Positions 24,511 to 29,893 are shown, counted from the first letter of the stretch. The stretch is 64,000 bases of DNA from Acidiferrobacterales bacterium (GCA_022340825.1 JAJDNE010000009.1:10849-74848); one strand, 5' to 3'. Translations and numbers: made by a program. Notes: generated by a model not told the origin, from the letters alone.

Positions 24511-24577
24511 ATATTGTTTCCTTGTACTGTTTATTTAGCTAACAAATACATTACACCGCCTGTTAGCGGTGGCCGCA

Positions 24578-24591
24578 TTGATCTGGCTCAA
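24578..24591 (-). promoter_or_regulatory. FNR/CRP-family box 1 (TTGATctggCTCAA), 9/10 to TTGAT-N4-ATCAA
   Basis: Centre lies 74.5 bp upstream of the ATG at 24510. With the centre set at -41.5, TGTAAT (minus strand, 24550-24555) falls exactly at -12..-7. Confidence 0.5.
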
Positions 24592-24605
24592 GACTTGATG
24601 AAAGG

Positions 24606-25181
24606 CTAGCGGGAAATGGAAACCGTGGAATATCGGTCGACTTGCACATCCGTAGACCAGAAATCCACTGGCAGGCCGGCTTTACGCTTTAGCTGCTGGA
24701 GAAATTCACGCGCATCAGGCAGGGATTCCCATACCGATGGCAGGAAGGTACCACGCTGCATACCCAGCGACAGGATCAGGCCGTCTACCCCCGGCTGCAA
24801 TTGCTCAATCAGGTCCGCCTCGGAATGAAAGCTCATCGGGGTCGCGGGCGTCAGGACCGAAATATGGATATCGAGCTGCGGCAGATCCCTGGCGGTAACA
24901 GGAGCAAACCTGGGATCGCGGAAGGCCGCACTGCGGGCATTGCTGCTGACATCCACCACCAGTGGCTGCCGTGCCTCCAGCGAGCCAATACAACCACGCA
25001 AGTTTCCCGATTGGTTGAGTGTCACAAAACTGGCGCCGTTTTCACCGAGCACGCCGTCGTAGTGGATCGCACTGATTCTGGCGCGCTCGCCATGAAGGCC
25101 CCGTTCGATAGATTCTCGCGCAAGCCATAACAGCGTTTCCCGCTGCGCCGGGTTAAAATCGAATTTTTCAGTGGAAGACAT
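24606..25181 (-). CDS. AmmeMemoRadiSam system protein A (AMMECR1 domain)
   Basis: LRGCIGSLEA AMMECR1 signature. Start at MSSTEKFD (25181) preferred over the ORF-track start at 25244, which would overlap the upstream gene by 77 nt. Confidence 0.85.
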   Translation of the reverse strand: MSSTEKFDFNPAQRETLLWLARESIERGLHGERARISAIHYDGVLGENGASFVTLNQSGNLRGCIGSLEARQPLVVDVSSNARSAAFRDPRFAPVTARDLPQLDIHISVLTPATPMSFHSEADLIEQLQPGVDGLILSLGMQRGTFLPSVWESLPDAREFLQQLKRKAGLPVDFWSTDVQVDRYSTVSISR

Positions 25182-25980
25182 ACGCTCCGTAGCCAACGAC
25201 CTGGTTCCGCGGCCCGGCAGTATCCCCGGAGTTCCGCAGATCAATCGTCTTTCCCTTCAGTCCGCGCTTGCGGGCCTGTAGCAGCAGACCGCTCACCGGC
25301 GTACGCCCGCAGGCCTGATCAAAATGAATTTCGTCATAGGCAAGGTGTTCGATTGCCAGGGACGTCGCGCTGTCCATTTGCCGGGCTGTCTGATAGTCGT
25401 GGTAATGGCTTAGATCCGAACTGATAACGATCAGGGTTTCCGGTCCACCCCACAGTCGCTCCAGTACTTCTGCCACTTCTTCTGCGCTGGCATCCCCGAC
25501 AACCAGTGGTACCAGCTGGAAATCCGCTAATACCGACTGCAAGAATGGCAGATGCACTTCGAGGCTGTGTTCCAGGGTATGGGCGTCATCGAACACGCGC
25601 ACTTGTGGCAAACCGCGGATTTGTTCCACCGCCTCACGATCTATCTCGATCTTCCCCAGCGGTGTGGCAAAGGCGTCACTCGCTGGTAATGCCAACCCAT
25701 GCACCGGGACCCGATGGGCCGGGCCGAGCAGGACTACCCGGGAGATGACGGAACTTGCTTGTCGGAGACTGGCATAGGCACTGGCGGCGACCGGCCCCGA
25801 ATAAATGTACCCGGCATGCGGTGCAATGATGGCCTTTGGTGGGCTATCGGAAGCGATTGCCGGATCGACGTCGGCAAGCATTTGCTCGACCATGGAACGC
25901 AGCTCCTGCGCATTCGCAGGGTAAAACATGCCCGCAACAGCAGGTGATCTGATCTGAGACAAAGCGGCACTCCCGAACAT
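25168..25980 (-). CDS. AmmeMemoRadiSam system protein B (Memo/MEMO1-like)
   Basis: 270 aa, AGMFYPANAQEL, IIAPHAGYIYSGPVAA, SSDLSHYH motifs typical of the Memo family. Confidence 0.85.
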   Translation of the reverse strand: MFGSAALSQIRSPAVAGMFYPANAQELRSMVEQMLADVDPAIASDSPPKAIIAPHAGYIYSGPVAASAYASLRQASSVISRVVLLGPAHRVPVHGLALPASDAFATPLGKIEIDREAVEQIRGLPQVRVFDDAHTLEHSLEVHLPFLQSVLADFQLVPLVVGDASAEEVAEVLERLWGGPETLIVISSDLSHYHDYQTARQMDSATSLAIEHLAYDEIHFDQACGRTPVSGLLLQARKRGLKGKTIDLRNSGDTAGPRNQVVGYGAYVFH

Positions 25981-26103
25981 CGTGTATCTCTATATAAATG
26001 ATGCGGGCGGCACCGGATTTCAAGCCTTTATTGATTTGCCGACGGAATGTCCGCATTTACTGTCTATCTGCGCACAAAACCGGCACTGACCGGCCTGAAA
26101 AAC

Positions 26104-27932: not shown

Positions 27933-28360
27933 TGACGCAATCCGCTGCTTACTGGGAACATTTTGACCACGAAGCCGACATCGGTGTACGCGGTGTTGGC
28001 CCGACACTTGCCCAGGCGTTTGAACAGGCTGCACTGGCCATGAGCGCGGTAATCACACCGCTGGAAAATATCGATACCAGGCAGGCTATCACGATCGAGT
28101 GCACTGGCGATGATCCGGAGGTGCTTCTGGTAGATTGGTTGAACGCGCTGGTGTATGAAATGGCGACGCGCAATATGCTGTTCGGCCGATATGCCGTTCA
28201 GATAGAAAGCGGCACACTAACTGCCACCGCCTGGGGTGAACCCGTTGACGTGCAAAAACACCAGCCCGCCGTTGAAATCAAGGGCGCTACCTATACTGCC
28301 CTGCGTGTCACTAAAACAGGAGACGGTTCGTGGATCGCCGAAACCGTGGTCGACGTCTGA
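27932..28360 (+). CDS. Archease (RtcB activator/chaperone family)
   Basis: 142 aa, WEHFDHEADIGVRGVG (HxAD motif), C-terminal IKGATYTAL. ATG overlaps the PRTase TAA (taATGa). Confidence 0.85.
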   Translation: MTQSAAYWEHFDHEADIGVRGVGPTLAQAFEQAALAMSAVITPLENIDTRQAITIECTGDDPEVLLVDWLNALVYEMATRNMLFGRYAVQIESGTLTATAWGEPVDVQKHQPAVEIKGATYTALRVTKTGDGSWIAETVVDV

Positions 28361-28372
28361 CAGGAAACGAAT

Positions 28373-29803
28373 ATGGACCTGAATCAACTGGAAAAGCTCA
28401 ACGACACCACCTGGCAGGTGAACCCCCACGGTGCCATGCACGTGCCCGCAGTCTTTTATGCCAGTGAATCGCTGGTAAAAAACATGGACGAAAAGGTCTA
28501 TGAGCAAGCATGCAACGTTGCCATGCTGCCAGGCATTGTTGGCGCGTCCTATGCCATGCCCGATGCACACTGGGGTTATGGTTTTCCGATCGGCGGTGTC
28601 GCGGCATTTGATCCGGCACAGGGCGGGGTCATTTCCGCCGGTGGTGTCGGCTTTGATATCTCCTGCGGGGTGCGCACACTGCTCACCGGGTTGACAAGAC
28701 AACAGGTGGAAGACGTGAAAACACAACTGGCAGATGCGCTGTATCACACGATTCCGGCAGGTCTCGGCAGTACCGGTAGCATCTCGCTCAACGACAAGGC
28801 AATGGATGACATGCTGACGGGCGGCGCCAGGTGGGCACTGGAACGTGGTTGGGGCCAGCCCGAAGATCTCGACCGCATCGAGGAAAACGGTTGCATGCTC
28901 GGCGCGCACCCGGACGCCGTGTCAGCACAGGCAAAGAAGCGCCAGAAAAAAGAAATGGGCACACTGGGTTCCGGCAACCACTACCTGGAGGTCCAGCACG
29001 TGACGGAGGTTTACGATGAAAAAATCGCCGACGTATTTGGCATCCGGGGTGGCGATGTCGTACTCAGCATTCACTGCGGCTCACGCGGTCTTGGCCACCA
29101 GATCGGGACCGAGTTCCTGAAACAAATGGTGGCCAGTACCAGGGATTACGGCATCGCATTACCGGATCGTGAACTGGCGTGCGCGCCGATTGACTCGCCA
29201 TTGGGGCAGCGCTATCTCGGTGCCATGCGCGCCGGCATCAACTGCGCGTTGGCGAACCGGCAGATCATTACTCACCTGGCGCGCGAGGCATTTTCGCGCG
29301 TCCTGCCGGATGCCGATCTCAAGTTGCTGTATGACGTTTCGCACAATACCTGCAAAGAGGAAGAGCATGAGGTGAACGGCCAAATGAAAAAACTGTTCGT
29401 TCATCGCAAGGGTGCTACCCGTGCCTTTGGCCCCGGCCATCCCGATATTCCAGAGGCGCTGCGCACTGCCGGTCAGCCGGTGTTGATCGGCGGGTCAATG
29501 GGCACAGGTTCGTTTATTCTCGCCGGGATGGCGGAAAGCGAACAACGAGCATGGAGTTCGGCCTGCCATGGCGCCGGGCGGGCAATGAGCCGGCGCGCGG
29601 CCACACGCCAGTGGCACGGACGGCAATTAGTTGATGAGCTGGCAGCGCGCGGCATACTCATCCGCAGCCCCAGCATGCGTGGCGTTGCCGAAGAGGCACC
29701 GGGCGCCTACAAGGATGTGACTGACGTGGTCGATGCCGCGGCTGCCGCGGGACTTGCGCGCAAGGTTGCTCGCGTGGAGCCGATGGTTTGCGTGAAGGGA
29801 TGA
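28373..29803 (+). CDS. rtcB: RNA-splicing ligase RtcB (3'-phosphate/5'-hydroxyl RNA ligase)
   Basis: 476 aa, GVGFDISCG, GSGNHYLEVQ, HCGSRGLGHQ, SHN..KEE, HGAGR metal/GTP-binding motifs. Confidence 0.92.
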   Translation: MDLNQLEKLNDTTWQVNPHGAMHVPAVFYASESLVKNMDEKVYEQACNVAMLPGIVGASYAMPDAHWGYGFPIGGVAAFDPAQGGVISAGGVGFDISCGVRTLLTGLTRQQVEDVKTQLADALYHTIPAGLGSTGSISLNDKAMDDMLTGGARWALERGWGQPEDLDRIEENGCMLGAHPDAVSAQAKKRQKKEMGTLGSGNHYLEVQHVTEVYDEKIADVFGIRGGDVVLSIHCGSRGLGHQIGTEFLKQMVASTRDYGIALPDRELACAPIDSPLGQRYLGAMRAGINCALANRQIITHLAREAFSRVLPDADLKLLYDVSHNTCKEEEHEVNGQMKKLFVHRKGATRAFGPGHPDIPEALRTAGQPVLIGGSMGTGSFILAGMAESEQRAWSSACHGAGRAMSRRAATRQWHGRQLVDELAARGILIRSPSMRGVAEEAPGAYKDVTDVVDAAAAAGLARKVARVEPMVCVKG

Positions 29804-29820
29804 CTCGACGTGTGTGATAT

Positions 29821-29834
29821 CTGATTGATATCAA
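29821..29834 (+). promoter_or_regulatory. FNR/CRP-family box 3 (CTGATtgatATCAA), 9/10 to consensus
   Basis: Centre lies 66.5 bp upstream of the nrdJ ATG. TATAGT at 29858-29863 falls at -11..-6 if the centre is -41.5. Embedded in the 12-bp palindrome ATTGATATCAAT (29824-29835), with a TGATATC direct repeat at 29815 and 29826. Confidence 0.5.
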
Positions 29835-29893
29835 TACTTATTAATACCTGTTTCCACTATAGTTATATCGACTGAGTACTTGCTGGCTAATCC

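Follow-up and report, generated by a model that had tools for sequence, protein, structure and literature searches.

In Escherichia coli, FNR activates the pnrf promoter from a site centred at −41.5 (PMC5434802), and in Pseudomonas aeruginosa the nrdJ promoter (PnrdJ) carries a functional Anr/Dnr box of the form TTGA(T/C)N4(A/G)TCAA, mutation of which strongly cuts anaerobic induction (PMC4860495). The lxa (low-oxygen-activated) locus of Burkholderia cenocepacia comprises 50 genes, among them those for a class II RNR (ribonucleotide reductase) and an alpha-crystallin, shows a TGA-N6-TCA motif at 17 sites between genes, and overlaps the DosR regulon (PMC3721108). In Mycobacterium tuberculosis the DosR regulon contains Rv0079 (HPF-like), Rv0570 (B12-dependent RNR), Rv0571c [a PRTase (phosphoribosyltransferase)], Rv2630, Rv2631 (RtcB) and hspX (alpha-crystallin) (PMC5309233). 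We analysed a stretch of 64,000 nt from an Acidiferrobacterales bacterium (GCA_022340825.1 JAJDNE010000009.1:10849-74848; hereafter the window), in which three boxes spread over 5.3 kb each match the palindrome TTGAT-N4-ATCAA at nine of ten positions. They lie ahead of a 4Cys-hpf-PRTase-DLH-xpt operon (box 1), a PRTase-archease-rtcB operon (box 2) and nrdJ (box 3). We consider it probable that the three boxes are the sites of an FNR/Anr/Dnr-class activator in class II promoters, active most likely under oxygen limitation.

An earlier, sequence-only reading of the window had pointed out the three boxes, and each was recovered at its position (Table 1) with a single mismatch. The half-sites have TTGA in five of six cases; the left half of box 3 has CTGA. 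A site centred at −41.5 implies that the −10 hexamer starts 29.5 nt from the centre of the site. Measured from the box centre to the start of the hexamer, the offsets were 29.5, 29.5 and 30.5 nt for boxes 1, 2 and 3 respectively, so the −10-like hexamers do fall within 1 bp of the class II position, as had been proposed. At none of the three boxes did a scan with the σ70 consensus reveal a −35-like hexamer paired with a −10-like one, and a box at this spacing from a −10 hexamer without a −35 element has the look of an activator-dependent class II promoter. The predicted promoters are thus similar to the FNR class II promoters of E. coli, such as pnrf, in the TTGAT-N4-ATCAA form of the box, in the use of one site in place of the −35 element and in a −10 hexamer approximately 29.5 nt from its centre. 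They differ in that their targets are hibernation, RNA-repair and dNTP genes rather than genes for respiratory enzymes, and in that one of them seems to start at the ATG. The genes assigned downstream of the boxes in the sequence-only reading were borne out by Pfam and NCBIfam searches; what that reading had omitted is that boxes 1 and 2 do not head isolated operons, as each directly follows a co-directional gene of the AmmeMemoRadiSam group.

We then asked how many such boxes are expected by chance, counting every match with no more than one mismatch to the ten half-site positions of TTGAT-N4-ATCAA. The whole window contained five against 2.45 expected, and 14 of 100 shuffles reached five, so that the total count is not significant; the only informative aspect is how the matches divide between coding and intergenic DNA. 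The intergenic DNA, approximately 5.8 kb or 9% of the window, held three of the five (expected 0.22–0.23; at least three in 4 of 2000 shuffles, P ~0.002). Boxes 1–3 were its only matches, in agreement with the earlier inspection by eye, which had seen no comparable box in the other intergenic regions. The chance expectation of approximately 0.02 given at that time is correct for the intergenic DNA within the cluster, which amounts to ~500 bp; that region had been picked post hoc, and for all intergenic DNA the expectation is the 0.22–0.23 given above. The remaining two matches, at 294 and 20476, lie in coding DNA without supporting context, and the one at 20476 is lost in a close relative (L081).

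To follow the boxes across relatives, orthologous loci were collected by scanning genomes with the radical SAM protein (L001–L080) and metagenomes with NrdJ (L081–L088) as queries, and by exact-protein look-ups of PRTase homologues (L089–L092 and L097–L099). The nearest genomes were uncultured Chromatiales-like, Muproteobacteria, Sulfuricaulis and Acidiferrobacterales bins; L098 and L099 belong to the Acidiferrobacterales, and L004–L006 are Muproteobacteria-like. Genes for Sox proteins, DsrE and phosphoribulokinase were found elsewhere in the 64-kb window using Pfam, and the host is therefore taken to be a sulfur-oxidising autotrophic gammaproteobacterium. Every orthologous promoter retrieved showed two sharp conserved patches, the box and the −10 hexamer, at a fixed spacing amid diverging intergenic DNA. 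What makes the boxes look genuine is that many uncultured sulfur bacteria of related lineages keep them at an unchanged distance from promoter elements. Phylogenetic footprinting thus supports the earlier reading of the boxes as sites of an FNR/CRP-type regulon, of which we infer the regulator, the O2 signal and the start sites.

Box 2 was found again in 11 further loci, which represent four clades. In nine loci (the window, L081, L089–L092 and L097–L099) all ten bases of the half-sites are invariant, whereas the N4 spacer takes six forms (GCTG, GCCG, ACGG, ACCG, GCTT and TCCG), which is the pattern expected if a protein reads the half-sites only. At the same position L004–L006 have TTGAC-N4-(G/A)TCAT. 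The box and its spacing are also unchanged where no radical SAM gene lies upstream, as in L092 (a divergent ferric-reductase-like gene) and L097 (a carboxyltransferase gene), showing that box 2 is not conserved as part of the 3′ end of the radical SAM gene. An extended −10 element of the form TGnTAnAnn was present at exactly 29.5 nt from the box centre in all 12 loci.

The distance from the centre of box 2 to the A of the PRTase ATG is likewise fixed, being 41.5 nt in seven loci and 42.5 nt in the other five of the 12 loci and four clades, and the −10 hexamer ends only 6–7 nt before this ATG. No consistent Shine–Dalgarno sequence was found before the PRTase ATG in the 12 loci, and no alternative in-frame start codon was available; the N-terminus of the PRTase (M-W-x-P-P-x-N-V-T-E-D/N-P...) is conserved from residue 1. 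Given the fixed distance and the lack of a Shine–Dalgarno sequence, transcription is predicted to start at the ATG or one nucleotide ahead of it, and the PRTase-archease-rtcB mRNA is predicted to be leaderless, with its start at the A of the ATG at 27246. Box 1 provides a contrast, as its centre lies 57.5–74.5 nt from the ATG in the different loci, floating by 17 nt where the box 2 distance is fixed to 1 nt, and a clear Shine–Dalgarno sequence is present (AAGGAA ahead of the first ATG of the operon). To our knowledge, leaderless transcripts are rare in Gammaproteobacteria. A literature search of incomplete coverage found neither a leaderless FNR class II promoter nor a link of RtcB or archease to FNR or Anr control, which is weak evidence in both cases, and these gene families are not mentioned in a paper on the CRP/FNR meta-regulon of a wastewater microbiome.

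Box 1 lies just after the stop codon of AMMECR1 and is kept upstream of the orthologous operon in nine other loci, giving ten loci from three clades with the window. Its sequence on the operon strand, TTGAGccagATCAA, is identical in the window, L081, L089, L090 and L091, and the order of the operon genes is the same in these four relatives. The Acidiferrobacterales loci have TTGAGCCAA(A/G)TCAA (TTGAGCCAAGTCAA in L098 and TTGAGCCAAATCAA in L099), and the Muproteobacteria-like loci, in which the operon begins directly with the PRTase gene, have TTGA(T/C)..TTATCAA (TTGATCCTTATCAA in L005 and L006, TTGACGCTTATCAA in L004). Within the window's clade 14 of 14 columns of the box are invariant, as against just 11 of the 25 columns upstream and 25 of the 67 columns downstream. 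The −10 hexamer of this promoter is part of a block, cGGTGTAATG, that is invariant in five loci with diverged flanks; TAATTT stands at the same offset in L098 and L099, and TAGTCT or TAATCT at 28.5 nt in L004–L006, so that the offset is 28.5–29.5 nt in all ten loci.

A terminator-like scan also picked up a GC-rich hairpin between box 1 and its −10 hexamer. The stem is kept in five loci, but there are no double compensatory changes and the T-tail is missing in relatives, and on these grounds the hairpin was not retained as a candidate for a conserved RNA or a terminator; a weakly acting terminator or insulator behind AMMECR1 is possible, as is an incidental structure.

Box 3 was identical (CTGATTGATATCAA) in two close relatives, L081 and L091. 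It lies within an invariant 24-nt block, GATATCTGATTGATATCAATACTT (29816–29839), 5′ of which the loci are unrelated. The homology begins 5–6 nt upstream of the box, spans the block, lapses, resumes at the −10 region CACTATAGT, which is invariant at the same offset in the window, L081 and L091 (3/3), and is lost again in the 5′ UTR (untranslated region). The rtcB–nrdJ junction (29804–29893) is itself variable, being 90 bp in the window and approximately 450 bp in L081 (9549–10000), with ~350 bp inserted, and containing in L091 (11016–13118) two inserted minus-strand genes, one OmdA-like and one for an ABC-type ATPase. Since box 3 and its −10 hexamer are unchanged despite insertions just 5′ of them, the promoter module travels with nrdJ.

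This arrangement is similar to P. aeruginosa PnrdJ in having an FNR-type box ahead of the gene for a B12-dependent class II RNR. It is different in that it belongs to uncultured sulfur-oxidising Gammaproteobacteria and serves a single 609-aa NrdJ, and in that no NrdR boxes were detected. The NrdR operator is a 16-bp palindrome, acaCwAtATaTwGtgt, usually paired approximately 31 bp apart. We rejected an NrdR reading of the nrdJ promoter, as no such palindrome with three or fewer mismatches was found anywhere in the window, and CACTATAGT resembles one half only. The nrdJ gene of L082 has what looks like a classic NrdR-type palindrome.

Further boxes were found in relatives. In L091 a perfect box, TTGATCTACATCAA, lies upstream of a hemerythrin gene (2346–2837) inserted in the minus-strand operon, and in L005 (3819–6116) perfect boxes precede an Hsp20/alpha-crystallin gene and also occur in the interval that separates a DUF6763 gene from a Prs-like PRPP (phosphoribosyl pyrophosphate) synthetase gene. 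Hemerythrin, Hsp20 and Prs-like genes are typical low-oxygen or stasis genes, and the boxes at these genes strengthen the idea of a regulon. In the two Acidiferrobacterales loci L098 (4839–5000) and L099 (4840–5000), the 4Cys-hpf and PRTase-archease-rtcB operons diverge from one 162-bp region, in which boxes 1 and 2 are 61 bp apart from centre to centre with no AmmeMemoRadiSam trio between them. In L004–L006 and in the clade of the window, the complete trio separates box 1 from box 2. As the best match to the box in the divergent region between the Memo and radical SAM genes has three mismatches, we did not count the trio as a regulon member; it seems to be embedded in the box-controlled module and is not visibly part of it.

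Several observations weigh against an FNR-type regulon. The intergenic DNA of the closest relatives is approximately 90% identical with that of the window, so comparisons with these alone weigh little. No locus outside the window's clade yielded box 3, and nrdJ in the more distant loci L005, L006, L020 and L082–L088 lacks it, which suggests that it is specific to the window's lineage; the left half of the box has a C where FNR sites are told apart from CRP sites, and the conserved block around the box also holds GATATC-N5-GATATC, with the GATATC copies 11 bp apart, and TTGATATCAA. Box 2 is off consensus at the last base in L004–L006 (GTCAT or ATCAT), and of the two best-conserved −10 bases, one is missing in the hexamer TGTAAT and one in TACATA. 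Finally, a gene of the CRP/FNR family was found neither in the window nor in the loci of the close relatives. For the window, tblastn with E. coli FNR and CRP sequences gave no such gene, and no cNMP or HTH_Crp domain was present in the ~58 ORFs (open reading frames) put through Pfam, in keeping with what the sequence-only reading had said on this point. In L030 (Methylobacter tundripaludum), an FNR homologue (11674–12357, minus strand; 36% identical to E. coli FNR across 229 aa) is encoded directly downstream of the radical SAM gene, where its presence is probably incidental.

We considered which protein might read the boxes. CRP itself was rejected, since the window contains no TGTGA-N6-TCACA site even if one mismatch is allowed, and the half-sites of the boxes are TTGA or CTGA; the TTGA rather than GTGA half-sites and the lack of CRP-type sites argue against it. 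A paralogue of the CRP/FNR family that senses something other than O2, such as a Dnr/NnrR-type NO (nitric oxide) sensor or a FixK-type relay, would respond to NO, denitrification or another redox cue. Anr and Dnr sites are indistinguishable by sequence, and induction of P. aeruginosa nrdJ needs dnr as well as anr (PMC4860495); in the window, box 2 matches the Dnr-compatible form TTGAT-N4-GTCAA. Yet nothing in the sequence favours NO over O2, and the gene content (hpf, class II RNR, hemerythrin and Hsp20) is typical of the Anr, lxa and DosR low-oxygen responses, so we regard such a paralogue as rather improbable. Much less probable still is that the conserved blocks, or at least that of box 3, are operators of an unrelated regulator, which would read GATATC-N5-GATATC or bind as a repressor and make the likeness to FNR sites coincidental. 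The length of the invariant block of box 3 and the palindromes within it, which could be readable by another protein, speak for such an operator, as does the confinement of this box to one clade. Against it, the same 14-bp motif stands at 29.5–30.5 nt from a conserved −10 hexamer at all three promoters, conservation runs a few bases past the box at boxes 1 and 2 as well, and the search for NrdR boxes was negative. That the boxes are chance matches, or are conserved through gene-end overlap or low divergence, is largely refuted, since the non-significant whole-window count, the stop codon within box 2 and the near identity of the closest relatives are outweighed by the intergenic enrichment, by the persistence of box 2 without the radical SAM gene and with a varying spacer, and by boxes kept where the flanking intergenic DNA is unalignable (L004–L006 and L097–L099).

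On the FNR-type reading, which we prefer, a dimeric activator of the CRP/FNR family with FNR/Anr/Dnr specificity would be encoded elsewhere in the genome. Each box would replace the −35 element with its centre at approximately −41.5, and the active regulator would act by recruiting RNA polymerase, that is, by activation rather than repression. It would be active most likely under oxygen limitation, and three transcription units would then be switched on. The first, 4Cys-hpf-PRTase-hydrolase-xpt, would serve ribosome hibernation and purine salvage. The second, PRTase-archease-rtcB, would serve RNA repair and give a leaderless mRNA starting at the A of the ATG. The third, nrdJ, possibly with bcp and phoH, would serve an O2-independent supply of dNTPs.

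The gene content of the window brings it close to the DosR regulon in M. tuberculosis, the control of which differs entirely, being exerted by the DosS/T–DosR two-component system on Dev boxes. Because the two control systems are unrelated, the likeness points to functional convergence or shared gene modules and not to membership. Like the lxa locus of B. cenocepacia, the window groups stasis and survival genes, has TGA-N6-TCA motifs in several of its intergenic regions, encodes a class II RNR and overlaps the DosR regulon in content. Unlike the window, lxa has genes for universal stress proteins, alpha-crystallin and PHA (polyhydroxyalkanoate) synthesis and its own Anr-like regulators; Pfam searches of the ~58 ORFs found no universal stress protein, alpha-crystallin or Anr-like regulator in the window. 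The window in turn has hpf, PRTases, archease–RtcB and the embedded AmmeMemoRadiSam trio, and boxed Hsp20 and hemerythrin genes occur only in its relatives.

In kind, the system would be an ordinary one, a low-oxygen regulon of FNR type whose lineage is new and whose set of targets is new in part, and it would leave FNR-type regulation understood as before. The parts most worth attention are the predicted transcription start that coincides with a start codon and the ancestral divergent arrangement of two boxes. These led us to a bolder but tentative proposal, which we consider possible but doubtful: that a leaderless PRTase-archease-rtcB mRNA, made from an FNR-type class II promoter conserved in at least four clades and divergent from an FNR-dependent 4Cys-hpf operon, forms together with the latter an ancient module that maintains ribosomes and RNA at low oxygen and converges on DosR content. 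If this is true, leaderless translation, being able to begin on 70S ribosomes, would allow the repair genes to be expressed while HPF shuts down canonical initiation. With its fixed box–ATG distance of 41.5–42.5 nt, the PRTase-archease-rtcB operon is a clear-cut and conserved candidate in Gammaproteobacteria for a leaderless mRNA that depends on an activator. The FNR-type reading would also give a regulatory logic, activation at low oxygen, to mostly uncharacterised genes (two PRTases, a DLH-like hydrolase, the 4-Cys protein and archease–RtcB) of uncultured sulfur-oxidising autotrophs, and the module of hibernation, RNA repair and class II RNR known from DosR and lxa would recur under FNR-type control in a third lineage.

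Table 1. Predicted promoter elements, transcription units and genes of the three-box region (positions in the window)
Feature	Coordinates	Strand	Remarks
Box 1	24578..24591	−	Predicted FNR-type site; TTGATctggCTCAA in the window, TTGAGccagATCAA on the operon strand
Predicted −10 of box 1 promoter	24550..24555	−	TGTAAT, start at 24555; 29.5 nt from box centre
GC-rich hairpin	24554..24571	−	Between box 1 and −10; from terminator-like scan
Box 1 operon	21212..24510	−	4Cys, hpf, PRTase, DLH, xpt and probably the 217-aa ORF
4-Cys 79-aa protein gene	24271-24510	−	First gene after box 1
hpf	23896-24249	−	PF02482
PRTase (box 1 operon)	23195-23881	−	Pfam
DLH-like alpha/beta hydrolase	22536-23198	−	Pfam
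xpt	21940-22515	−	TIGR01744, above its cut-off
217-aa ORF	21212-21865	−	Function not assigned; probably in box 1 operon
AmmeMemoRadiSam trio	24606..27201	Both	Pfam, TIGR04337
AMMECR1	24606-25244	−	Trio member
Memo	25168-25980	−	Trio member
Radical SAM	26047-27201	+	Trio member
Box 2	27198..27211	+	Predicted FNR-type site, TTGATgctgGTCAA; left half includes TGA stop of radical SAM gene
Predicted extended −10 of box 2 promoter	27231..27239	+	TGcTACATA (hexamer TACATA 27234-27239); 29.5 nt from box centre
Box 2 operon	27246..29803	+	PRTase, archease, RtcB; Pfam
PRTase (box 2 operon)	27246-27932	+	Pfam
Archease	27932-28360	+	Pfam
RtcB	28373-29803	+	Pfam
Box 3	29821..29834	+	Predicted FNR-type site of nrdJ promoter, CTGATtgatATCAA
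Predicted −10 of nrdJ promoter	29858..29863	+	TATAGT; 30.5 nt from box centre
nrdJ	29894..31723	+	Adenosylcobalamin-dependent class II RNR; TIGR02504, 600 bits against a cut-off of 400
bcp	31804-32283	+	Pfam; same strand as nrdJ
PIN-PhoH	about 32300-33691	+	Pfam; same strand as nrdJ; ParA-like gene next

The genes that follow nrdJ, bcp and that for PIN-PhoH, may be co-transcribed with it. The 79-aa 4-Cys protein is acidic, matched no family in Pfam or NCBIfam, always adjoins hpf and is conserved as far as the Acidiferrobacterales. In L091, hpf is fused to a cold-shock domain, giving a protein of 188 aa (4893–5459).

Elsewhere in the window, an Rfam scan returned a single tRNA only, with no riboswitch near nrdJ. 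A 1007-aa ORF (3220–6243, minus strand) encodes an E2–E3 fusion with lipoyl, E3-binding and E2 catalytic domains and a full E3 (dihydrolipoamide dehydrogenase), and adjoins the E1 alpha and beta genes. A tRNA gene (48196–48268) abuts or overlaps the 5′ end of an ORF for a LigT-like 2′-5′ RNA ligase (47540–48268, minus strand), the true start of which is probably further downstream.

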